Below, in pieces: positions 2,894 to 47,452 of a stretch of DNA of 64,000 nt. Made by a program: the position numbers and the translations under genes. Position 1 is the first letter of the stretch. Every line of letters starts with the position of its first letter. Under the pieces are notes generated by a model. The model was not told where the DNA came from and ran no database searches. It was given only the letters and a program-made list of their open reading frames with translations. The DNA lies in the NCBI GenBank assembly GCA_965203035.1, contig OZ241858.1, forward strand, positions 2,201,437 to 2,265,436, written 5' to 3'. The DNA comes from Candidatus Spongiisocius sp. Its GTDB lineage: Bacteria; Actinomycetota; Acidimicrobiia; Spongiisociales; Spongiisociaceae.

Positions 2894-3781
2894 TCACGAT
2901 GCCACCGCTTCCCTGAAGAGATCCGAGAGCGTAGGCGGACCGTACGAGAACTCCCGCACCGCCCTGCCGTCCGAGAGCGCGGTCATTATCTCCTCCATGC
3001 CGAGTTCGGCGGGCACCCTGAGAATGTGACGGGTACCGATCGATTCCACCAACCGGACACCCGGAAGGGCGGGGGTGGGGGCCGGCGATGAGTCCACATC
3101 CACCTCGACCCTCCGGTGAGCCGCCCGGTCCTTGAGCGTCTTGACGGGCCCGGACAGAGCTACCCGGCCCTGGTTGATGATGGCGACGTCATCACATAGG
3201 TGCTCTACGAGATCCAGCTGATGGCTGGAGAAGAGCACCGCCGATCCTTGTTCCGCACGCTCTCTGAGTATCCGGGACATCTCCTCGACTCCGAGCGGGT
3301 CCAGGCCGCTGAAGGGCTCATCCAGCACCAGCAGCTCCGGATCGTGTACCAGTGCGGTTACGAGCTGCACCCTCTGCTGGTTTCCGTGAGAGAGGTCGTC
3401 GATCCGTGAGTCTGCCCGCTCCTCGAGCCCGATCCGGGCGATCCACCGGTCGGCTGCGCCGGCGGCGGCTGCCTTGCTGAGCCCGTGGAGACGACCGAAG
3501 TAGATCACCTGGCGGCGTACCGGCATGCGGGGGTACAGGCCGCGCATCTCCGGCATGTATCCGAACCGCCGGCGCGCGCCGTGGGTGACTGTTCGGCCCA
3601 TCCAGGTCACGGTGCCCGCATCGAGGCGCAGCAGGCCGAAGACGGCGCGCATGGCGCTGGTCTTGCCGGCGCCGTTGGGACCGAGGAAACCAACCAGCCG
3701 CCCCGGCTTTACGGAGAAACCGCAGTCATCCAAGGCAACCACGTCGCCGTAGCGCTTGGTAAGGCCGTCAAGTTCGAGCAT
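2894..3781 (-). CDS. ABC transporter ATP-binding protein (ABC-2/DrrA-like, with a C-terminal extension)
   Basis: Walker A (GPNGAGKTS), signature (LSHGNQQRVQLVTAL) and Walker B (LLVLDEPFSGLDP). Confidence 0.8.
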   Translation of the reverse strand: MLELDGLTKRYGDVVALDDCGFSVKPGRLVGFLGPNGAGKTSAMRAVFGLLRLDAGTVTWMGRTVTHGARRRFGYMPEMRGLYPRMPVRRQVIYFGRLHGLSKAAAAGAADRWIARIGLEERADSRIDDLSHGNQQRVQLVTALVHDPELLVLDEPFSGLDPLGVEEMSRILRERAEQGSAVLFSSHQLDLVEHLCDDVAIINQGRVALSGPVKTLKDRAAHRRVEVDVDSSPAPTPALPGVRLVESIGTRHILRVPAELGMEEIMTALSDGRAVREFSYGPPTLSDLFREAVAS

Positions 3782-3838
3782 GGACCGTAAGGAGGGTAAT
3801 CACCCGCGTGCCCGTACTCCCGCGGGCCGACCCGCTCC

Positions 3839-4552
3839 GTGGGAGGCAAGGGGCTTCCCATGGACGTCCTTGGCCGGTACAAGTACGGGGGCGTTGTGGA
3901 TGGAGGAGGTGCCATGTCCGAGACGTCATCCGGGCGCGGCATTCGCGCCGGGGCGCCGGGTATTCCAGTGTCCCGCCGGGGCGCTTCGCTCGTCCTGGGA
4001 GGCGCGCTGGTGCTCGTGATCGGATTCGCCCTCTGGAACCGGCCCCAGGCACCTCCGGCGGAGTCCCAACCCTCCCCGGAGGTTCTGGTCGTGCCCGTGT
4101 CCGCGGTCGAGACCCCTCCGGCTCTGGCGACCGTTCATGTCTCGGGCGCGGTCGCGGCGCCCGGCCTGGTGGTGTTGCCGGAAGGAAGCCGGGTGGCCGA
4201 TGCGATCGCGGGGGTGGGCGGCGCACTGCCCGGCTCGGAGCTTCGACTGATCAACCTGGCTGCGCCGGTAGCGGACGGCATGCATCTCGATGTTCCGTGG
4301 GCCGGCGACGGGACGGGCACGGGGATCGCACCGTCCGGCGCGGCGGGATCGGGCTACCCGGTAGACCTGAACCGGGCGGATCACGAGGCTCTCACCGGCA
4401 TTCCCGGGGTGGGCGAGGTGCTGGCGCTGCGCATCGCCGCACACAGGGAGGCCCACGGTCCGTTCACCACCATGGAGGACCTCCTGGACGTTCCGGGCAT
4501 CGGCGAAGGCAGGCTGGCCGGAATGCGCGACTACGTGGAGGTGGGTCGATAG
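3839..4552 (+). CDS. comEA: Competence protein ComEA (helix-hairpin-helix DNA-binding/uptake protein)
   Basis: N-terminal TM helix and C-terminal tandem HhH motifs (LNRADHEALTGIPGVGEVLALRIAAHREAHGPFTTMEDLLDVPGIGEGRL). The start could instead be a downstream in-frame ATG. Confidence 0.8.
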   Translation: MGGKGLPMDVLGRYKYGGVVDGGGAMSETSSGRGIRAGAPGIPVSRRGASLVLGGALVLVIGFALWNRPQAPPAESQPSPEVLVVPVSAVETPPALATVHVSGAVAAPGLVVLPEGSRVADAIAGVGGALPGSELRLINLAAPVADGMHLDVPWAGDGTGTGIAPSGAAGSGYPVDLNRADHEALTGIPGVGEVLALRIAAHREAHGPFTTMEDLLDVPGIGEGRLAGMRDYVEVGR

Positions 4553-4614
4553 GCCGCCTGCCGGACCCGGGAGCGAGATGGTTCCTGGCCGGCGCCGGCG
4601 CCATCTGGATCGGA

Positions 4615-6702
4615 GTGGTCGCCGGGATCCGGGCCCCCTGGATCGCTGTCCTGGCCTTCGGCGCCGCAGCCGTGGCCGGCGTCCTGCGCAGTTGGGGAGC
4701 CGTCGTGGTGGCGGGCCTCGCCACACTCGGAGCCCTCGGCGGCCTGTTCCTGGGCGCCCGCCATCAGGAGACGGTGGAGTCAGTGCTGCCCCAGGGTGAG
4801 GTGACACTACTGGTCGAGACTCTGGCCGATGCTTCGGGCGGTCCGGGGCAGGACCGGGTTCTCGTACGGATTCTGGCCGTCGAGGGAGCGGCAGGGCCGA
4901 TCGCCTGGGACGGTCCGGCAGGCAGGCTCCGAGGTGACGTGGCCGGCTGGACACGGGACAGCCGGTGGTGGGTTGAGACGACGATGTACCCCGGCGCCGA
5001 TCCCGTTGCCAGGGACAGAGCCAGGAACCCCATCGTCTGGCAGGGCCGGGTAGTACGCGCTCGTCCCGCGCCCGAACGGGTCGGATGGGTGGCGGGACAG
5101 GCTGCGCGGGTCCGTTCCCTGATGATCGATCGCCTCCGCCCGGACGCCGGCCGGGGTAGGGCGCTCCTGGCCGGATTCCTGCTCGGGGACGTTTCGAACC
5201 TGCGACCGTGGGAGGAGGAGGCGATGCGCCGCGCCGGCCTGTCGCACTTCGTGGCCGTGTCCGGAAGCAACGTGGCGCTGTTCCTGGGCGCCCTGTTCCT
5301 GGTAGCGGGCCCGCTGGGTTGGAGTTCCATACGTCGAGCAGTCCTGGGTCTGGCCGGCCTGGTCTTCTTCGTGTTCCTCATCGGGCCGGACCCGTCGGTG
5401 GTACGGGCCGCCACCATGGCGGGGCTGGTGCTGGTCGCCCGATCTTTCGGCCTGCGCCCGGACATCTGGCGGGTGATCGGGGTGGGGGTGGGGCTGCTCC
5501 TTCTGGTTTCTCCCGAGCTGGCCTACAGCCTCGGATTCCAGCTCTCGGTAGCAGCCACGGCCGGGGTGGTGGTCGGAACCGGGTGGTTCCGCAACCTCCG
5601 CCCCCGGTGGCTCGCCACCTCGCTGGGAGCTGCCTGCGGCGCCCAGCTGGCGGTAGCCCCGGTCCTGCTGCTCGCGATCGGGCATCTTCCCCTCTGGTCG
5701 CCGGTCGCCAACGTCGCGGCTGCGCCGCTCGTGGTGGCGGCAACCGGGTTGGGAGGAGCGGGGGCCGTCGCGAATGTGGACGGGCTGGTGGAGGCAGGCG
5801 CCCTTCTGGCTCGCGGGGTCCTGGGGATAGCCGATCTGTCGTCAACCCTGCCGCAGATCGGATGGACGGCCACCCTCCTGCTGGCCGGGTGCGGGTTGGT
5901 GGCGATCTCTCGCCGGTTCCGGCCGCTCGCGGTACTGGCGGCCAGCCTGTTCGCGTGCGTGTTGACGGTCTCCACCGTTCCGCATGCGGTGGCGGGTGCT
6001 CCGGCCCGGCCGGCGTTCATCGCCCTTGACGTCGGTCAGGGCGATGCGTTGCTGCTCCTGGGCGAGGAGGGCGAGACGGTGCTGGTCGACGGGGGGAGCG
6101 ACGGCGCCAGGATCCGGGCCGGCCTGGCCCGGTTCGATGTCAGGGCCGTGGACCTGCTGGTCCTGTCCCATGCCCATCATGACCACTACGGCGGACTGGT
6201 CGACGTCATCGGATCGCTTCCGGTCGGGCAGGTGTGGTACGCACCTTTCCCGGGCCGGACGGACGGGTACGCGAGCCTGGTGGAGGCAGCCGAGCAGGTG
6301 ACCCGGGTCGCGGTACCGAGCCTCGGCGTTCACGTGATCGGATCCATCCGGCTTGAGGTGCTGGGTCCGATCCGTCGGTATGCCTCTCCCAACGATCAGT
6401 CGATAGCCATCCGGGCCACGCTCGGCGGTGGGACCGTACTGCTGACCGGCGATATGGAACGTATTTCCCAGGCCGAGATCGACCCTCCCCGCGTAGATGT
6501 GCTGAAGGTTCCCCACCAGGGCGCCGCCACCTCCGATCCGGAGTGGTTGGTAAGAACAGGCGCGTCCGTGGCGGTGGTGAGCGTCGGACCCAACCGGTTC
6601 GGCCACCCCTCTGAGGAATTGCTCGCCACGCTCGAGAGGGCCGGCATGCAGGTGCGTCGCACCGACCGTGAAGGCGACGTGGTGGTCGGGCTCGGACAGT
6701 GA
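4615..6702 (+). CDS. comEC: DNA internalization competence protein ComEC/Rec2 (competence domain plus C-terminal metallo-beta-lactamase domain)
   Basis: ComEC competence domain (GLSHFVAVSGSNVALFLGALF) and an MBL motif (LLVLSHAHHDHYGGL). It lies in frame 1 of the long 3808..6702 ORF. The start is uncertain (no ATG; GTG at 4615 or CTG at 4558). Confidence 0.8.
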   Translation: MVAGIRAPWIAVLAFGAAAVAGVLRSWGAVVVAGLATLGALGGLFLGARHQETVESVLPQGEVTLLVETLADASGGPGQDRVLVRILAVEGAAGPIAWDGPAGRLRGDVAGWTRDSRWWVETTMYPGADPVARDRARNPIVWQGRVVRARPAPERVGWVAGQAARVRSLMIDRLRPDAGRGRALLAGFLLGDVSNLRPWEEEAMRRAGLSHFVAVSGSNVALFLGALFLVAGPLGWSSIRRAVLGLAGLVFFVFLIGPDPSVVRAATMAGLVLVARSFGLRPDIWRVIGVGVGLLLLVSPELAYSLGFQLSVAATAGVVVGTGWFRNLRPRWLATSLGAACGAQLAVAPVLLLAIGHLPLWSPVANVAAAPLVVAATGLGGAGAVANVDGLVEAGALLARGVLGIADLSSTLPQIGWTATLLLAGCGLVAISRRFRPLAVLAASLFACVLTVSTVPHAVAGAPARPAFIALDVGQGDALLLLGEEGETVLVDGGSDGARIRAGLARFDVRAVDLLVLSHAHHDHYGGLVDVIGSLPVGQVWYAPFPGRTDGYASLVEAAEQVTRVAVPSLGVHVIGSIRLEVLGPIRRYASPNDQSIAIRATLGGGTVLLTGDMERISQAEIDPPRVDVLKVPHQGAATSDPEWLVRTGASVAVVSVGPNRFGHPSEELLATLERAGMQVRRTDREGDVVVGLGQ

Positions 6703-6750: not shown

Positions 6751-7500
6751 ATGGCCATGACGACTCAGCGCAAGCGGATCCTGATCACCGGAGCCGGCAG
6801 GTGGAACAAGGGGGAGGAGGGGGGCCTGGGCGCGGCGCTGGCGATCCGGCTCGCCGGCCAGGGACACACCGTCGTCGTCAACCACCGTTCCAGCGGCGAA
6901 TCGGCCGAGCGGCTGGTCGAGGCGATCCGGAACCGGGCGGCGAGCGCACTGGCCGTCCGGGCGGACGTCACCGATCCGGACGACGTGGAGAGGATGGGGA
7001 GGACCATCGAGCAGGAACTCGGCGGACTCGACGCGGTGATCAACAACGCCGGCCTTTTCCTGATCAAGGACTACGAACACCTGACCCCCGATGAGTGGGA
7101 GTCGCAGATAGCGTCGACCGCGACGGCCACCTACTACGTGTCCAACATCCTGCTGCCCTTGCTGCGCGAGCAGGGCGGAAGGATCATCAACATCGCCGAC
7201 GCGGGCGCCGATCGGATCACCGCCCGGCCCCGCACCCTTCCGTACCACATCGGCAAGATGGGAGTGCTGATGATCACCCGGACCATGGCCAGGGCGGAGG
7301 CCGGCCATGGTGTCACTGTCAACGCCATCCTTCCGGGGGTCCTGGAGAACTCCGAACCCCTTCCGGATCGGGCCCGCATACCGGCGGGACGCCACGGCAC
7401 CGCGGACGACGTCCTGGAAGCGGTCACGTTCCTCCTGAGCGAGAAGGCCGGCTACGTCACCGGCGCCTTCATCCAGGTCGGTGGGGGCTGGAACCTCTAG
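6751..7500 (+). CDS. SDR-family short-chain dehydrogenase/reductase
   Basis: Rossmann TGAGRWNKG...GxG motif, NNAG motif, and the YxxxK catalytic region (LPYHIGKMG). Confidence 0.75.
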   Translation: MAMTTQRKRILITGAGRWNKGEEGGLGAALAIRLAGQGHTVVVNHRSSGESAERLVEAIRNRAASALAVRADVTDPDDVERMGRTIEQELGGLDAVINNAGLFLIKDYEHLTPDEWESQIASTATATYYVSNILLPLLREQGGRIINIADAGADRITARPRTLPYHIGKMGVLMITRTMARAEAGHGVTVNAILPGVLENSEPLPDRARIPAGRHGTADDVLEAVTFLLSEKAGYVTGAFIQVGGGWNL

Positions 7501-11264: not shown

Positions 11265-12242
11265 ATGCCTCCCGTCGCGCCGCCTGCCCGAACCCTGCAC
11301 GTGCCCGGTATCAGCCTGATGCTGGACCTGCTCGGCGAACGGGATTCCCACCTCCGGCTGGTGGAGTCGGCATACCCTGAAGCCGTAATCGTGGCGCGTG
11401 GCGACGAGATCGTGTTCCAGGGCGAGGAGCGGTCGGCCCGCCGGGCCCACAAAGTGGTGGAGGAGCTGCTGATGCTGGTACAGCGGGGTATGAGCCTGGA
11501 GCGCGAGGGCGTGCACCGCGTCATCGAGATGGTCAATGACTCGGTGCCGTCTCCCAGCGGTGTCCTCGGGGAGACCATCGAGGTAGCCCGGGGGAAGATC
11601 GTCCGACCCAAGACGGTGGGGCAACTCCGCTATGTAGAGGCGATCCGCCGATCGACCCTCGTTTTCGGAATCGGACCGGCCGGGACCGGCAAGACCTATC
11701 TCGCCATGGCGGCCGCGACCGAGTCCCTGATCACCGGCAAGGTCAAGCGGATCGTCCTCACCAGACCGGCGGTCGAGGCCGGGGAGAGGCTCGGCTTCCT
11801 GCCCGGCGATCTGGAAGCGAAGTTCAACCCCTACCTACGACCGCTGTACGACGCCCTGTACGAGATGCTGGGGCCTGACGACGTAATGGGATACATGGAG
11901 AGGGGAACGATCGAGATCGCCCCGCTGGCCTACATGCGAGGCCGCACGCTCAACGATTCGATCGTGGTGCTGGACGAGGCGCAGAACACGTCCCGGGCAC
12001 AGATGAAGATGTTCCTCACCCGGCTGGGATTCAACTCGAAGATGATCATCACAGGCGACGCCACCCAGGTCGATCTGCCGCGCGATCGCCTCTCGGGGAT
12101 GGTCCACGCCCGGACCATCCTGGAGGAGGTGCGCGACGTGGCGGTGGTCCACCTGAGCGCCGCCGATGTGGTTCGCCACCGTCTAGTGGCAGAGATCGTG
12201 GAAGCTTACGAGGCAGCGGACAGCCGGTCGCCCGACCGATGA
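11265..12242 (+). CDS. phoH: PhoH-family ATPase
   Basis: Walker A (GPAGTGKTYLAMAAA) and PhoH signature (RLGFLPGDLEAKFNPYLRPLYDAL). Confidence 0.9.
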   Translation: MPPVAPPARTLHVPGISLMLDLLGERDSHLRLVESAYPEAVIVARGDEIVFQGEERSARRAHKVVEELLMLVQRGMSLEREGVHRVIEMVNDSVPSPSGVLGETIEVARGKIVRPKTVGQLRYVEAIRRSTLVFGIGPAGTGKTYLAMAAATESLITGKVKRIVLTRPAVEAGERLGFLPGDLEAKFNPYLRPLYDALYEMLGPDDVMGYMERGTIEIAPLAYMRGRTLNDSIVVLDEAQNTSRAQMKMFLTRLGFNSKMIITGDATQVDLPRDRLSGMVHARTILEEVRDVAVVHLSAADVVRHRLVAEIVEAYEAADSRSPDR

Positions 12243-14839: not shown

Positions 14840-14889
14840 CCACCGAACGCCCGGCGCCCCACCCGAGTCCGGCAGCGGGGGACTAGCCC

Positions 14890-15360
14890 ATGGAGATCAA
14901 CTTGGCGAACCATCAGGACCTGCCGGTGGACGCGGACGCGCTCCGCGCCCTGGCGAAAGCCGTGCTGGAGAACGAAGACATGCCCTCGTCAACCGAGGTG
15001 GGGCTCATGCTGGTTACCGACGATGACATGGCGGTGCATAATCAGCGGTTCATGGGCCGGGACGGGCCCACCGACGTGCTGGCGCTACCCCTCGCTCCAC
15101 CCGGCTTGGAACATCGGGATAGGGCCACCCGAAGCGGTTCGGGGGTTCCGTACGCGCTCGGCGATGTGATCATTGCACCCGGTTACGTACGCGGCCAGGC
15201 GCAGCGTCTCGGCACCGCGTACGAGGTGGAGATCGCGCTCATGGTCGCCCACGGGCTGCTGCATCTGATCGGCTACGACCACGAGTCGGACTCGGAAGCT
15301 GAACGCATGGAATCGAGGGAGCGCCACCTCCTGGCGGCGATGGGGATGGAGCGGCCATGA
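14890..15360 (+). CDS. ybeY: rRNA maturation endoribonuclease YbeY
   Basis: HGLLHLIGYDHE zinc-binding motif. Conserved position. Confidence 0.9.
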   Translation: MEINLANHQDLPVDADALRALAKAVLENEDMPSSTEVGLMLVTDDDMAVHNQRFMGRDGPTDVLALPLAPPGLEHRDRATRSGSGVPYALGDVIIAPGYVRGQAQRLGTAYEVEIALMVAHGLLHLIGYDHESDSEAERMESRERHLLAAMGMERP

Positions 15361-16553
15361 GTTGGCTGGCCTGGGCGGCGGCGGCGATGGTTCTCGCGCT
15401 GGCGGCGGCACTGAGGGCGGCCGGGGAATCGCTGGTCCGCACGCCACGGGCCGATGCCCTTCACGACGCCGCGGATGGCAACGAGGGCGCCGGGATCGTG
15501 GCAGGCCTGCTGGAGGACAGGGCCCGGATCCAACCGGCCATCTCGCTGATGCATGCCACCCTCCTGGTAACCACCGCGCTGGCCGCAGCCTGGGTCACCG
15601 GCACCGTGCTGAGCGGGTCCCGGCTGGTGATGGCGCTGGTCATGACGGCCGGAATTATCGTGCTGCTCGGAGATGTGCTGCCGCGTTCGGTCGGCCGGAA
15701 ACGACCCCACCGCATCGCATACCGGCTGGCCAGGCTGTTGCGGCTGACGATTTCGATCGGCGGACGTGCGGCCGACCTGATCGAGGATGAGGAGGACGGC
15801 GCCCCGGCCCCGGCCCCGGCCAACGGCGATCACGACCCGTCCGATCGAGAGGAGATCCGCATGATCTCCTCCGTTCTCGAGTTCTCCGATGCCATCGTGC
15901 GCGAGGTGATGGTCCCGCGGACGGACATGGTGACGCTGGGCGTCGCCAGTACCACTGCCGAGGCCCTGGATCTCATCCTGGACTGCGGCTACTCGCGAGT
16001 GCCGGTCACCGGCAAGGGGACGGACGACATCGTGGGGATGGTGTACGCGAAGGATCTACTGCGCCGGGTGGGGGCATCACGGGATCCGGAACCGGTCACG
16101 GAGATCTCTCGCGAGCCCTACTTCGTTCCCGAGTCCAAGCCGGTGCGTGACCTGCTGCGGGAGATGCAGTCGCGACAGATCCACATTGCCATTGCTGTTG
16201 ACGAGTTCGGCGGGACCGCCGGGCTGGTCACGATCGAGGACCTGATCGAGGAGTTGGTGGGCGAGATCGTCGACGAGTACGACACGGAGGCGCCCATGGT
16301 GCAGCCTCTGGAGGACGGAGGGTTCCTGGTGGCGGCCCGATTGTCGGTGGACGACCTCAACCAGGTATTGGGCGCCGATCTGCCCGACCACGAATGGGAC
16401 ACCGTGGGAGGCCTGGTGCTCGGCCTGGCCGGACGGGTACCAATGGTGGGCGAGAGGTTCGAGATGGGGGAAGCCGTACTCGTAGCCGACCGGGTACAGG
16501 GTCGGCGGGTCGAGCGGGTGCTGGTCCACCGGGTGGGCGACACCGGTCGCTAG
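15357..16553 (+). CDS. CNNM/CorC-family membrane protein (DUF21, tandem CBS, CorC-HlyC domain)
   Basis: N-terminal TM region followed by a CBS pair and a transporter-associated C-terminus. Conserved position between ybeY and era. Confidence 0.85.
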   Translation: MSWLAWAAAAMVLALAAALRAAGESLVRTPRADALHDAADGNEGAGIVAGLLEDRARIQPAISLMHATLLVTTALAAAWVTGTVLSGSRLVMALVMTAGIIVLLGDVLPRSVGRKRPHRIAYRLARLLRLTISIGGRAADLIEDEEDGAPAPAPANGDHDPSDREEIRMISSVLEFSDAIVREVMVPRTDMVTLGVASTTAEALDLILDCGYSRVPVTGKGTDDIVGMVYAKDLLRRVGASRDPEPVTEISREPYFVPESKPVRDLLREMQSRQIHIAIAVDEFGGTAGLVTIEDLIEELVGEIVDEYDTEAPMVQPLEDGGFLVAARLSVDDLNQVLGADLPDHEWDTVGGLVLGLAGRVPMVGERFEMGEAVLVADRVQGRRVERVLVHRVGDTGR

Positions 16554-16644
16554 CCCTGATTATTCATGTTCCCAGCACGCCGACCCGGATCAGGCCACCA
16601 TCCGGACAAACCGCCGTCCATGAATAATTGGGGCTGAGGCACGC

Positions 16645-17614: not shown

Positions 17615-19009
17615 TTGGTGCGATTCCGGATCGAGAAGGACTCCATGGGGGAGGTGCAGGTGCCGTCGGATGCCCTGTACGGCGCCTCGACCCGGCGGGC
17701 ACTCGAGAACTTCCCGATATCCGACCGGAGGTTCGGCCGCTCGTTCATCTGGGCGCTCGGCCTGATCAAGGGCTCGGCCGCCCAGATGGCCGGGGCGGCG
17801 GGTCATCTGCCCGGTGAGATCGCCGAGGCGGTTTCCCAGGCGTCCGACGAGGTCATGGCCGGAGACTGGGACGAGCAGTTCGTGCTCGATGTCTTCCAGA
17901 CCGGGTCCGGTACCTCCACCAATACCAACGCCAACGAGGTGATCGCCAACCGGGCAGCCCAGCTGCTCGGAGGGTCGATCGGGGACCGGTCGGTCCACCC
18001 CAACGATCACGTGAACTTCGGCCAGTCCTCGAACGACGTGATCCCCACCGCCATACACCTGGCGGCTGCACGGGCTACCAGAGAGGACCTGGTGCCGGCA
18101 CTGGAGGCGCTGGCGGGGTCACTGGGGGAGCGGGCCGCCGACTTCTCGGGCGTGGTCAAGTCCGGCCGCACTCACCTCATGGACGCCACGCCGGTGACGC
18201 TGGGCCAGGAGTTCTCCTCGTACGCGGCCCAGATCGACAAGGGCGTCGAGCGCCTGGAGGCTGTGTTGCCGGGCCTCGACGAGCTCGCCCTGGGAGGCAC
18301 CGCAGTCGGCACGGGGATCAACGCACCCCCCGGGTTCGCGGCGTCGGTGGTCGGGCTGATGGCCACGAGGACCGGTTACCCGCTCCGCGAGGCCGACAAC
18401 CACTTCGAGGCCCAGGCCGCGAAGGATGCGGTCGTGATGGCTTCGGGCGCCCTGAAGACCGTCGCCGTGTCCCTGTTCAAGATCGCCAACGACCTGCGCT
18501 GGCTCTCGTCCGGACCCCGTACGGGACTGGGGGAGATCAGGCTTCCCGCCCTCCAGCCGGGATCCTCGATCATGCCCGGCAAGGTCAATCCGGTCATTCC
18601 CGAGATGGTCTGCCAGGTTGCCGCGCAGGTGATCGGAAACGACTCGGCCATCGCCTGGGGTGGCGCCAACGGCAATCTGGAACTCAACGTGATGATGCCG
18701 ATGATGGCCCACAACCTCCTGGACTCGATCGGGCTGCTGGCAAGCGCCTCGTCCACGTTCCGGGAGCGTTGTGTCGACGGGATAGAGGCGGATGCGGACC
18801 GGGCTCGCCGGCTGGTGGAGAGCAACCTGATCGTGGTCACCGCCCTCAACCCGAGGATCGGTTACGACAGGGCCGCCGAAGTGGCCAAGGAGGCCTACGC
18901 CTCGGGCCGCACCATCCGTGACGTCGTGCTCGACATGGGCCTGATGGAGCCGGAGGAGTTGGACGAGGTGCTGGACATCAAGCGGATGACCGAAGGCGGG
19001 ATTCTCTAG
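17615..19009 (+). CDS. Aspartate ammonia-lyase / class II fumarate hydratase family lyase. Motifs lean towards AspA.
   Basis: [11 protein letters not shown] signature loop. The VNPVIPE and FVLDVFQ motifs are closer to AspA; [11 protein letters not shown] resembles FumC. Confidence 0.85.
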
Positions 19010-19017
19010 TTTCAACG

Positions 19018-19179
19018 TGGTTGGTCTGTGTTTCGGCGGCGTGCTCTGAACCGCCATCGACGCCTCTGGCTGCGTCCTGCCTCCTCAACGTACCCTGCGG
19101 GTACGCCTTCGTCAGCAAATCCTTGCCATAGACGCCGCTGCCGGCGCCAGACCCCACCGCCGCGCCACAGACCAACCAC
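19018..19179. repeat. 162-bp element bounded by perfect 14-bp inverted repeats (GTGGTTGGTCTGTG ... CACAGACCAACCAC), with several internal short hairpins
   Basis: Read directly from the sequence. Located in the convergent aspA/sufU intergenic region. Confidence 0.6.
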
Positions 19180-19224
19180 GGGACGCGCGATTGCTGACGA
19201 CTGCGCATAACGTGAACACGGCCA

Positions 19225-19273
19225 AGTTGCTAGTTGTTCCATTGGCTAGAAACTATTGACTATCAACTACCAA
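19225..19273. repeat. Heptamer hairpin element B: AGTTGCT AGTTGTT, loop CCATTGG, then four inverted degenerate copies (CTAGAAA CTATTGA CTATCAA CTACCAA).
   Basis: Same architecture and loop context as element A (TAGTTGTTCC...CTAGAAAC). The sufU stop codon is embedded. Confidence 0.8.
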
Positions 19274-19724
19274 CAAAGTTGTTAATGGCCTGTTCCAGGG
19301 TAGTCCAGGGCAGGTTGGCGCACTTGATCCGGACCGGGAACTTACGGACTCCCTGAAGTGCCTCGAGATCACCGAGTACCGCACCGGGCCGGCTCGGATC
19401 GAGCCCGGGGTCTCCGGCGCCGTCGATGCTCATCATCCCCTTGAACCGGCCGGTGACTGTTCGTATCGTCTCGATGCTCCTGCCCTTCACGGCGTCGCCC
19501 ATCATCGAACCCGATGCCTGGGATATCGAACACCCGTGACCGGTGACCCCGATCGCGGTGACGTGGTCCCCCTCGATCAGCAATTCGACCCGGACCTCGT
19601 CACCACACAGCGGATTGTTGCCGTCGGCTACCGCGTTGGCCCGCGCCAGGGCCTTCCGGTTACGGGGGCTCCGGTAGTGGTCGAGGATTACCTCACGGTA
19701 GAGATCTTCAAGCGCCATGAGCAT
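19263..19724 (-). CDS. sufU: SUF-system Fe-S cluster scaffold SufU/IscU-family protein
   Basis: Conserved Cys motifs (NPLCGDEV, GHGCSIS). Confidence 0.85.
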   Translation of the reverse strand: MLMALEDLYREVILDHYRSPRNRKALARANAVADGNNPLCGDEVRVELLIEGDHVTAIGVTGHGCSISQASGSMMGDAVKGRSIETIRTVTGRFKGMMSIDGAGDPGLDPSRPGAVLGDLEALQGVRKFPVRIKCANLPWTTLEQAINNFVGS

Positions 19725-19792: not shown

Positions 19793-21028
19793 TCAGGCGC
19801 CGTAGAGTCCGAATATGCGGCGGGCCACGCCGAGGGCGTCCACCAGCGCGTCCACGTCCTCGGCCACGTTGTAGACATAGAACGAGGCCCGGGTCGTGGC
19901 GATCAGGCCCAGGCTCCGGAGCAAGGGCTTGGCGCAGTGGTGCCCGGCTCGGACCGCCACTCCTTCCTGGTCGAGGATGGTGGCCACGTCGTGAGCGTGG
20001 ATGCCCTCGAGGTCGAAGCTGATCGCCCCGCCCCGGTCAACGGTGTCTGCCGGGCCTTGGACAGAAAGGCCGGGAACCTCGGCAAGTCGCTCCAGGGCGT
20101 AGCCGGTGAGATCCCGGTCATGTTCCACAACGGCATGCATCCCGATGGCGGACAGGTAGTCCACCGCCGCCCCCAACCCGATCGCCTCCACGAACGGCGG
20201 CGTTCCGGCCTCGAACTTGTGGGGCACTTCCGCCCAGTCCGACTCGTGCAGGCGGACATCACGGATCATCTCGCCCCCGCCCTCGGCGGGCTCCATGCCC
20301 TCCAGCAGTTCCCTCCGGCCCCACAGGACCCCGATGCCGGTCGGCCCGAGCATCTTGTGGCCCGAGAATCCGAGGAAGTCTGCTCCGAGGGTCTGGACGT
20401 CCACAGGGGCGTGGGGGACCAGTTGGGCGCCGTCGACCAGGAGCACCGCGCCGACCTCGTGAGCCAGACCGGCGATCTCGTCCACCGGAGGCATGGTGCC
20501 CAACACGTTGGACATTCCCGACACCGCCACGACCTTGACCCGCTCGTCGAACCGCTCGCGAGCGCTCTCCATATCGAGCCGGTAGTCGTCGGTCAGCTCC
20601 ATGTAGCACAGTTCCGCCCCGGTGTGGCGGGCGATGATGTGCCAGGGCACGATATTGGCGTGATGCTCCATCACGCTGGTCAGGATCCGGTCACCGGGTT
20701 TCAGGATGTTGAGACCCCATCCGTACGCGAAGAGGTTCATCGCCGCGGTGGCGCTTCGGGTGAAGATGATCTCCTCGTCGCATGCGGCGTTCAGGAAGAC
20801 GGCCACCTTGTGGCGGGCCTCCTCGTAGGCCTCGGTGGCCTCCTGCGAAAGGGTGTAGGCGCCGCGGTGGACGTTGGCATAGGAGTTCCGGTAGACATCC
20901 ATCATCGCGTCTAGCACCTGAACCGGCTTCTGGGAGCTCGCTGCGGAGTCGAGAAAAGCCATCCTGCGACCGTTGATCCTCCGCTCCAGGATCGGAAAGT
21001 CGCTGCGTATGGCGTCCGTGTCCATCAT
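19793..21028 (-). CDS. sufS: Cysteine desulfurase SufS (class V aminotransferase)
   Basis: PLP-binding motif (SGHKMLGPTG) and the C-terminal catalytic Cys region (RAGHHCAKPL). Confidence 0.9.
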   Translation of the reverse strand: MMDTDAIRSDFPILERRINGRRMAFLDSAASSQKPVQVLDAMMDVYRNSYANVHRGAYTLSQEATEAYEEARHKVAVFLNAACDEEIIFTRSATAAMNLFAYGWGLNILKPGDRILTSVMEHHANIVPWHIIARHTGAELCYMELTDDYRLDMESARERFDERVKVVAVSGMSNVLGTMPPVDEIAGLAHEVGAVLLVDGAQLVPHAPVDVQTLGADFLGFSGHKMLGPTGIGVLWGRRELLEGMEPAEGGGEMIRDVRLHESDWAEVPHKFEAGTPPFVEAIGLGAAVDYLSAIGMHAVVEHDRDLTGYALERLAEVPGLSVQGPADTVDRGGAISFDLEGIHAHDVATILDQEGVAVRAGHHCAKPLLRSLGLIATTRASFYVYNVAEDVDALVDALGVARRIFGLYGA

Positions 21029-37464: not shown

Positions 37465-37539
<75 letters not shown>

Positions 37540-37559
37540 ACCCCCGCTACCCGATACAG

Positions 37560-47368: not shown

Positions 47369-47452
47369 GCCGGGATGGCGGAATTGGTAGACGCGCCGGA
47401 CTCAAAATCCGGTGCCCCTTGGGGCGTATGGGTTCGAGTCCCATTCCCGGTA
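47369..47452 (+). tRNA. tRNA-Leu (anticodon CAA), type II with long variable arm
   Basis: GCCGGGATGGCGGAATTGGTAGACGCGCCGGACTCAAAATCCGG...GGGTTCGAGTCCCATTCCCGGTA. Confidence 0.85.

Follow-up and report, generated by a model that had tools for sequence, protein, structure and literature searches.

Small mobile repeats shape bacterial genomes: they create strain variation, add terminators, promoters or RNA structures near genes, and break assemblies. The ERIC/IRU, Correia/NEMIS and RUP elements of Proteobacteria and Firmicutes are imperfect palindromes of 100–170 bp, dispersed through intergenic and often transcribed regions, which can form long RNA hairpins, show presence/absence polymorphism and are essentially symmetric; a TA/CTAG-type target is typical of foldback repeats mobilized by IS630. 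REPs are shorter (20–40 nt), occur in hundreds of copies and carry GTAG before the hairpin, whilst the system as such is defined by a REP-flanked RAYT gene. MITEPsy1 is an IS5-derived element of 100 nt that duplicates 4 nt (CTAG or YTAA) and has, at its very tips, 18-nt inverted repeats resembling its parent ISPsy2 (PMC3189936), and references given in PMC2170065 describe a duplication of TA within CTAG for IS630.

The literature that we searched contained nothing on Ca. Spongiisocius and no description of the repeat analysed here, which is a new family of MITE/foldback repeat, a known kind of selfish DNA, in an uncultured lineage. We analysed a 64-kb stretch of DNA (hereafter the window) with a long palindrome between fumC and sufU, and found that this element is probably one copy of a small, non-coding, non-autonomous mobile DNA family, MITE-like and of foldback type, that targets CTAG in sponge-associated Acidimicrobiia, namely Ca. 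Spongiisocius and its relatives. It is referred to below as family A.

Anatomy of the element between fumC and sufU

The element lies in a convergent spacer, where fumC on the plus strand faces sufU on the minus strand, as had been predicted originally (Table 1). Its core is a perfect 15-bp inverted repeat, CGTGGTTGGTCTGTG, whose arms are 135 nt apart and extend, in a repeat search, to 33 nt with 82 % complementarity. Exact occurrences of the 15-mer in the 64-kb window are limited to the two arms, and by arithmetic the chance expectation for a perfect 15-bp inverted pair within 200 nt in a window of this length is ∼0.01. The original prediction had named a 14-bp repeat, GTGGTTGGTCTGTG, starting at 19018, with its exact reverse complement 134 bp away; this sequence pair is indeed present, but at 19017–19030 and 19166–19179, with the longer spacing and as part of the 15-bp repeat. 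The whole 165 nt are a near-complete palindrome that folds into one hairpin. On the minus strand the predicted fold is nearly continuous, at about −107 to −108.2 kcal/mol (z = −8.5), compared with about −74 to −76 kcal/mol (z = −3.4) on the plus strand. The short palindrome GTACCC-TGC-GGGTAC, singled out earlier, forms the apex, whilst the separate GC hairpins proposed alongside it turned out to be alternative local folds of the two arms.

Three ORFs cross the element (76, 76 and 60 aa), none of which contains a Pfam family, and as such it has no coding capacity. A search with Rfam covariance models, which had been suggested as a check for a structured RNA, returned no match to any known family over the element, either at the gathering score or at E-values up to 10; the only Rfam matches in the window were two tRNA genes on the plus strand (37475–37549 and 47369–47452). 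No promoter or terminator consensus was found on either strand between 18800 and 19500, nor did this region contain a canonical intrinsic terminator consisting of a GC-rich stem and a U-tract. An integron attC site (RYYYAAC in the 5′ arm, GTTRRRY in the 3′ arm) was also considered and rejected, as GTT and AAC lie on the opposite arms and the flanks are housekeeping genes with no integrase.

The palindrome is part of a larger repeated unit of ∼217 nt (19010–19226), in which a left CTAG is followed by a 6-nt linker, the hairpin, a conserved 42-nt tail and a degenerate second CTAG. Conservation within the family runs from about 19006 to 19226, and a profile HMM places the window unit at 19007–19233. 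The linker has the family consensus TTGAT (5 nt) and differs among strains in the length of its T-run. The tail, in which no supported structure was found, has a family consensus of ∼45 nt (GGGACCCGCGGTACCGnAACGACTGCGCATAGCGTGAACGCGCC) followed by CTAG or a one-base variant, and was kept in all main-family copies as well as in two hairpin-deleted alleles (L045 and L047, see below). In other copies the second CTAG reads CTAG, GTAG, TTAG or ATAG. Of 13 copies, 12 have CTAG or a one-base variant ahead of the unit, and most copies have it at both outer ends; in a copy of a diverged subfamily (L039, 7057–7222) CTAG is found directly at the hairpin arm.

The 14-bp repeats had been taken for the termini of a 162-bp element. 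They in fact lie inside this larger, asymmetric unit; direct repeats are missing immediately beside the 162 bp, but a duplicated CTAG flanks the ∼217-nt unit. The unit has outer tips (TTGATCG… and …GAACGCGCC) that lack complementarity and do not form the terminal inverted repeats (TIRs) characteristic of MITEs, the sole inverted repeat being the hairpin base, which lies 5 nt (consensus; 6 nt in the window copy) inside one end and ∼42–46 nt inside the other. We compared the unit ends with the TIRs of IS5, MITEPsy1 and ISPsy19 (GGAAGGT… / GAGGGTG…) and obtained no meaningful alignment at either end; IS5-type ends were therefore rejected for family A.

Table 1. Features of the fumC–sufU element and its surroundings in the window, with copies of the co-resident family B in other loci
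Feature	Position	Strand	Basis or remark
fumC (class II fumarate hydratase), upstream flank, outside element	17615-19009	+	Pfam
Left CTAG, target-site copy	19006-19009	+	TAG at 19007-19009 is the fumC stop codon
Left linker TTTCAA	19010-19015	+	Between CTAG and hairpin; alignments
Left arm of perfect 15-bp inverted repeat	19016-19030	+	CGTGGTTGGTCTGTG
Long imperfect hairpin (165 nt), core of the repeat family	19016-19180	-	Folds best on minus strand
Hairpin apex GTACCC-TGC-GGGTAC	19081-19095	.	Sequence and fold
Right arm of perfect 15-bp inverted repeat	19166-19180	+	CACAGACCAACCACG; most conserved stretch of the family
Conserved 42-nt tail GGACGCGCGATTGCTGACGACTGCGCATAACGTGAACACGGC	19181-19222	+	On one side only; makes the unit asymmetric
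CAAG, degenerate second CTAG copy	19223-19226	+	Copy comparison and L022 empty site
sufU/NifU-like scaffold gene, convergent flank, outside element	19263-19724	-	Pfam
SufS gene, beyond sufU	19793-21028	-	Pfam
Family B copies (others exist)	L004 4242-4340; L010 7138-7236 and 5853-5951; L011 1964-2062; L018 4204-4303; L021 126-224 and 6567-6676		

Copies in other genomes and alleles of the fumC–sufU site

The 64-kb window, which sets the scope for its own genome, holds one copy. Other genomes were surveyed by scanning a species-representative genome collection with a pattern common to both arms, followed by a profile search. The arm-pattern scan returned 18 loci, of which 13 were real copies and five, all in other phyla (L005, L012, L013, L016 and L020), were chance matches with no extended similarity. 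The copies elsewhere that the original prediction called for were thus present: the sponge-associated Acidimicrobiia MAG APA_bin_98 has at least 11 loci on different contigs, and further copies occur in five other genomes. In APA_bin_98 full units are found on at least nine contigs, 84–92 % identical to the window copy over the 165-nt hairpin, together with one minimal copy and one tandem partial copy. The additional copies were found in Ca. S. variivorans, three other Acidimicrobiia assemblies and the sister strain L002. One copy is on a 4.08-Mb Acidimicrobiia chromosome (OZ246890.1); there (L006), a truncated type I restriction R-subunit gene (3367–5173; HSDR_N plus partial SWI2/SNF2, 395 codons) lies upstream of a 5′-truncated family-A unit. 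A metagenome scan chiefly re-found the APA_bin_98 loci or the same sponge population, and also recovered members of the diverged subfamily; the plasmid collection held no match to the element.

The genes beside the copies are unrelated and of housekeeping type, among them those for peptidases of the M1 and M20 families, a pyridine nucleotide-disulphide oxidoreductase, a protein of the LytR family, isocitrate dehydrogenase and a pyrroline-5-carboxylate reductase-like protein, the last assigned by eye from its translated C-terminus. Most copies lie 0–70 nt downstream of a stop codon. Their orientation relative to these genes is mixed, with most co-directional, three antisense and three in divergent spacers. 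Searches with blastn and tblastx for orthologues of the loci flanking the APA_bin_98 copies, in the window and the sampled relatives, found none and thus provided no extra empty sites. One metagenome contig (L024, Ga0209020_1011884) joins the flank of the L010 copy to that of the L015 copy across the repeat, which points either to recombination between copies or to an assembly that is chimeric at the repeat.

At the fumC–sufU site itself, relatives of the window strain carry filled, empty and decayed alleles. In L022 and L039 (FumC 89 % identical) the site is empty and the stop codons of fumC and sufU are 3 nt apart (ctCTAGttgCTA). The L022 site has a single CTAG, with ctCTAG followed directly by ttgCTA, whilst the window reads ctCTAG, then 213 nt (19010–19222), then CAAGttgCTAG; the difference from the empty site is thus one unit and an additional CTAG copy, which is mutated. 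L046 (FumC 96 %) is also empty, again with a single CTAG. Among strains with FumC identities of 98–100 %, three carry the full element: the window strain, L044 and L002 (FumC 99 %, a 3.38-Mb contig), where it occupies the same site with about five differences. As L046 is empty and strains at 98–100 % are filled, the element entered the site after the split from the 96 % lineage.

Two further strains (L045 and L047, FumC 98–99 %) have lost most or all of the hairpin and kept linker and tail. L045, whose FumC protein is the same as that of L044, retains a rearranged 57-nt hairpin remnant in which part of one arm is inverted, whilst in L047 14 nt of the left arm are fused straight to the tail. 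The hairpin has been deleted in situ in near-identical strains and is therefore not required at the fumC–sufU locus. In the relatives with an empty site, the spacer measures 3–22 nt. The 718-nt fumC–sufU spacer of L040 (FumC 79 %) did not contain family A. In L003, a further relative with FumC at 89 %, the spacer is 364 nt long (11366–11729) and starts TAGcgcccTTGATCGTTGGTCCGCGAG...CTCGTGAACGAGCC; by eye it resembles the left end and the tail end of the family, a profile search at E < 1 missed it, and it may represent a heavily decayed copy. The short-read scaffold L001 (FumC 100 %) ends exactly at CTAGTT, which is at least as well explained by heterogeneity of the T-run and the element between co-occurring strains as by a repeat-induced break.

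A second insertion polymorphism was found between the gene for an HD-domain membrane protein and ybeY, where L039 has a diverged copy (7020–7225), L003 keeps an arm fragment only (about 7280–7330), and the window and L002 have no copy. A 33-nt direct repeat of one arm stands ahead of the L039 copy, which runs antisense to the two genes. In the window (about 14840–14890) and in L002 the same spacer ends in GGCAGCGGGGGACTAG, possibly an older arm remnant.

The sequence between the element and sufU also varies. The CTATCAA heptamer, noted earlier as heptamer element B, adjoins or overlaps the sufU stop codon (window 19250–19275), with about two copies in the window and L047, three in L002, five in L044 and seven in L045, and is absent from the empty-site relatives L022 and L046. 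Read on the minus strand it is (TTGATAG)n, which resembles the CTAG-TTGAT left junction of the element. Between element and heptamers, positions 19227–19249 contain two more CTAGs 12 nt apart (CTAGTTGTTCCATTGGCTAG); this stretch is missing from the L022 empty site and may be the footprint of another insertion or excision.

CTAG targets, co-resident repeats and the search for an enzyme

CTAG is rare in the window, with 36 occurrences observed against 197 expected from composition, a depletion of ∼5.5-fold (GATC occurs 580 times), and many of these CTAGs are found at gene ends or in spacers. TAG serves as the stop codon of 19 of 46 genes in a crude gene call. With CTAG depleted and TAG a common stop, tolerated targets are concentrated at gene ends. 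Seven loci, of which six are independent, have a long co-directional gene upstream whose TAG stop comes from the left CTAG of the family-A unit, and in no locus does the right CTAG supply the stop of a convergent gene; stop-abutting insertions are thus oriented 6 : 0, always with the left end at the stop. CTAG or a one-base variant stands at both ends of the unit, and CTAG once in the empty sites, as expected of a target-site duplication with a length of 2, 3 or 4 bp, although at the level of sequence a 4-bp duplication would look the same as an element-borne terminal CTAG joined to a CTAG target.

Two other repeat families, B and C, were found in the flanks of the APA_bin_98 copies, both with clean TIRs. 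Family B is a classical MITE of 104 bp with TIRs GGAGGGTGCTGAGCAAT and CTAG on both sides, present in many copies in APA_bin_98 (Table 1) and not found in the 64-kb window; its TIR starts GAGGGTG, like that of the IS5-family element ISPsy19. Family C has terminal repeats CCCTGATTCTTCATG and is likewise bracketed by CTAG. Copies of both are in some cases nested with family A, sharing a CTAG with it, and family B abuts family-A units in this manner in L021 and L004. The window does contain a family-C-like element (16554–16634; CTAG, CCCTGATTATTCATG...CATGAATAATTGGGG, CTGAG) with TIRs of ∼15 bp, which sits on the TAG stop codon (16551–16553) of a CNNM/CBS/CorC gene. The family-C-like end motif was also seen at the orthologous site in L001, L002 and L022/L039. 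Together with the IS5 and IS630 precedents, these CTAG-bracketed families make a CTAG-targeting transposition activity plausible in this lineage.

Pfam searches detected no transposase among 30 genes of the 64-kb window or among the neighbours of 10 copies, and no Y1 transposase or RAYT gene was found in the ∼64-kb window plus ∼300 kb of loci. Motif scans of the sampled loci revealed no element of 1–2 kb bounded by ends of family A, B or C, and an all-against-all comparison of 72 kb of APA_bin_98 loci gave no repeats of ≥ 300 nt. An autonomous IS with matching ends was likewise not found in the window and the sampled loci, although ISs are often missing from MAGs.

Mobility of family A as a non-autonomous element inserting at CTAG is well supported, given its dispersed copies, empty sites, CTAG bracket, lack of coding capacity and decay by deletion. 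We propose that a transposase supplied in trans would recognize the conserved base of the palindrome and insert the unit at CTAG, with duplication of that target; this 4-bp signature is known from the IS5 family, and would fit a TA duplication of IS630 type too. The left CTAG of the duplication would restore the stop codon of the gene entered. After insertion, the long and unstable palindrome would decay by internal deletion or rearrangement, and any effect on the host, for instance termination without a U-tract at the hairpin separating fumC from the suf operon, would be incidental and dispensable. The simplest reading is that the enzyme would be a DDE transposase, of the type that mobilizes the CTAG-flanked MITEs alongside which family A occurs.

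Strand asymmetry, competing explanations and known systems

Several observations count against a DDE-mobilized, MITE-like element: the inverted repeats are not terminal, in contrast with a classical DDE transposase substrate, no autonomous partner was found in the window, beside the copies or among the 72 kb of APA_bin_98 loci, the 64-kb window holds a single copy, stop-abutting insertions share one orientation, and wobble pairing is strand-asymmetric, which a purely double-stranded mechanism does not predict. The asymmetry was evident from a structure alignment of 12 copies, two diverged ones included, on the minus-strand fold. This structure has 59 pairs with 95 % of cells paired, compared with 82.8 % when these pairs are mirrored on the plus strand. 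G·U cells number 92 and A·C cells 7, and an unbiased arm-against-arm alignment gave ∼8 versus 2 per copy or consensus. Compensatory double changes occur at seven pairs and span subfamilies; none of 500 shuffles reached seven, and slid controls gave 0–5. Furthermore, the minus strand is the more stable in 15 of 15 copies with RNA and DNA parameters alike. The plus strand of the hairpin is C-rich (GC skew −0.12 to −0.21) in loci that are mostly G-rich in that orientation, which makes local mutational skew unlikely as the cause; the local skew itself is positive in unit orientation at 11 of 15 loci, a count confounded with gene orientation. The asymmetry goes back in large part to a common ancestor, and it therefore represents few independent events.

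Such one-sidedness might instead arise if the element moved as single-stranded DNA via an HUH-type enzyme, like REP/RAYT systems, IS200/IS605-derived PATEs or IS91/Helitron-type rolling-circle elements; the minus-strand hairpin would then be the recognition structure and CTAG both target and terminal cleavage site, with no true target-site duplication. We regard this as unlikely. The lack of TIRs and the asymmetric unit with its subterminal hairpin are in keeping with it, but the known IS200/IS605 elements require hairpins at both ends, whilst the tail has no supported structure, and the diverged subfamily, in which CTAG immediately borders the arm, has the appearance of a regular foldback MITE. 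The more stable minus strand, the wobble bias, the plus strand that is C-rich against local skew and the compensatory pairs that keep the structure across subfamilies also favour single-stranded movement; nevertheless, the shared ancestry of the copies reduces the asymmetry to few independent events, at ∼8 versus 2 per consensus. Further points in its favour are the 6 : 0 orientation bias and the tandem partial copies in L015 and L039, which recall BIME arrays. Additionally, the minus-strand hairpin lies 5 nt (consensus; 6 nt in the window copy) upstream of the 3′ CTAG and is reminiscent of Helitron ends, which consist of a hairpin plus CTRR. Against this, the window and the neighbourhoods of the copies showed neither a Y1 nor a Y2 transposase, and the co-resident MITEs with TIRs are CTAG-flanked as well, making CTAG duplication of DDE type the simpler common cause. 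We likewise give a rather small chance to the hairpin being the cis site of a single-strand-specific mobilization (HUH/RAYT-like or rolling-circle), or to the element spreading a functional minus-strand RNA hairpin, either of which would explain the missing TIRs, the asymmetric unit, the wobble bias and the orientation bias at stop codons.

The original prediction had left a MITE-like element and a structured sRNA side by side; copies, empty sites and the duplicated CTAG speak for the former, and no positive support emerged for the latter. A functional RNA hairpin, dispersed by transposition and afterwards kept as a U-less (‘I-shaped’) bidirectional terminator or 3′-end stabilizer for fumC and suf, or as an antisense or 3′UTR-derived sRNA, would suit the very stable fold (z = −8.5) on the strand of the suf operon, the bias towards that strand of G·U pairs, which RNA tolerates, the compensatory change in the stem and the position of most copies just past a stop codon. 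We consider it quite improbable, however, as in most other copies the sense strand is the poorly folding plus strand, three copies lie in divergent promoter regions, and neither an Rfam match nor a promoter or terminator consensus was found. At the fumC–sufU locus in particular, near-identical strains have deleted the hairpin and relatives without the element manage with the short spacer, and a primary RNA function is therefore unlikely. That the palindrome is a chance or locus-specific structure, either a single-copy long terminator stem or an assembly artefact, is hardly credible: it is true that the 64-kb window holds only one copy, but many copies exist in other genomes and assemblies, long-read chromosomes included, which excludes a single-copy terminator stem, and the independent assemblies L002 and L044 have the same element at the same site.

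Families A, B and C together show that CTAG-targeting miniature elements form a set in the genomes of uncultured sponge-symbiont Acidimicrobiia; these elements insert preferentially at the TAG stops of housekeeping genes, after which they decay rapidly. Full, truncated and empty alleles, along with the neighbouring heptamer VNTR, provide strain markers, and family A accounts for contig breaks in short-read metagenomes. Should a single-strand mechanism prove true, family A would offer a handle on an undescribed transposition system, which would be REP-like, have an unusually large hairpin and come from a phylum with hardly any such systems on record; failing that, it adds one to the list of MITE families.

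Among described elements, MITEPsy1 of Pseudomonas syringae resembles family A in being small and non-coding, in occurring in several copies, in inserting at CTAG with an apparent 4-nt duplication and in having no transposase of its own. Unlike MITEPsy1, family A has no repeats at its tips, no known parent IS and no IS5-type ends, and possesses instead an internal palindrome of 165 nt and a one-sided tail. We know of no sequence similarity between family A and ERIC/IRU, Correia/NEMIS or RUP; it is like them a dispersed imperfect palindrome with presence/absence polymorphism, but differs in its asymmetric tail and subterminal repeats. With REP/BIME and RAYT systems and the IS200/IS605-derived PATEs it shares a strand-specific hairpin preceded by a tetranucleotide (here CTAG), a location just past stop codons, tandem or partial arrays and the lack of TIRs, whereas its hairpin is four to eight times longer than that of REPs, both ends of the unit carry CTAG and no RAYT was seen. 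Finally, families B and C differ from family A in their clean TIRs, but share its genomes and its CTAG flanks, and occur nested with it at common CTAGs.
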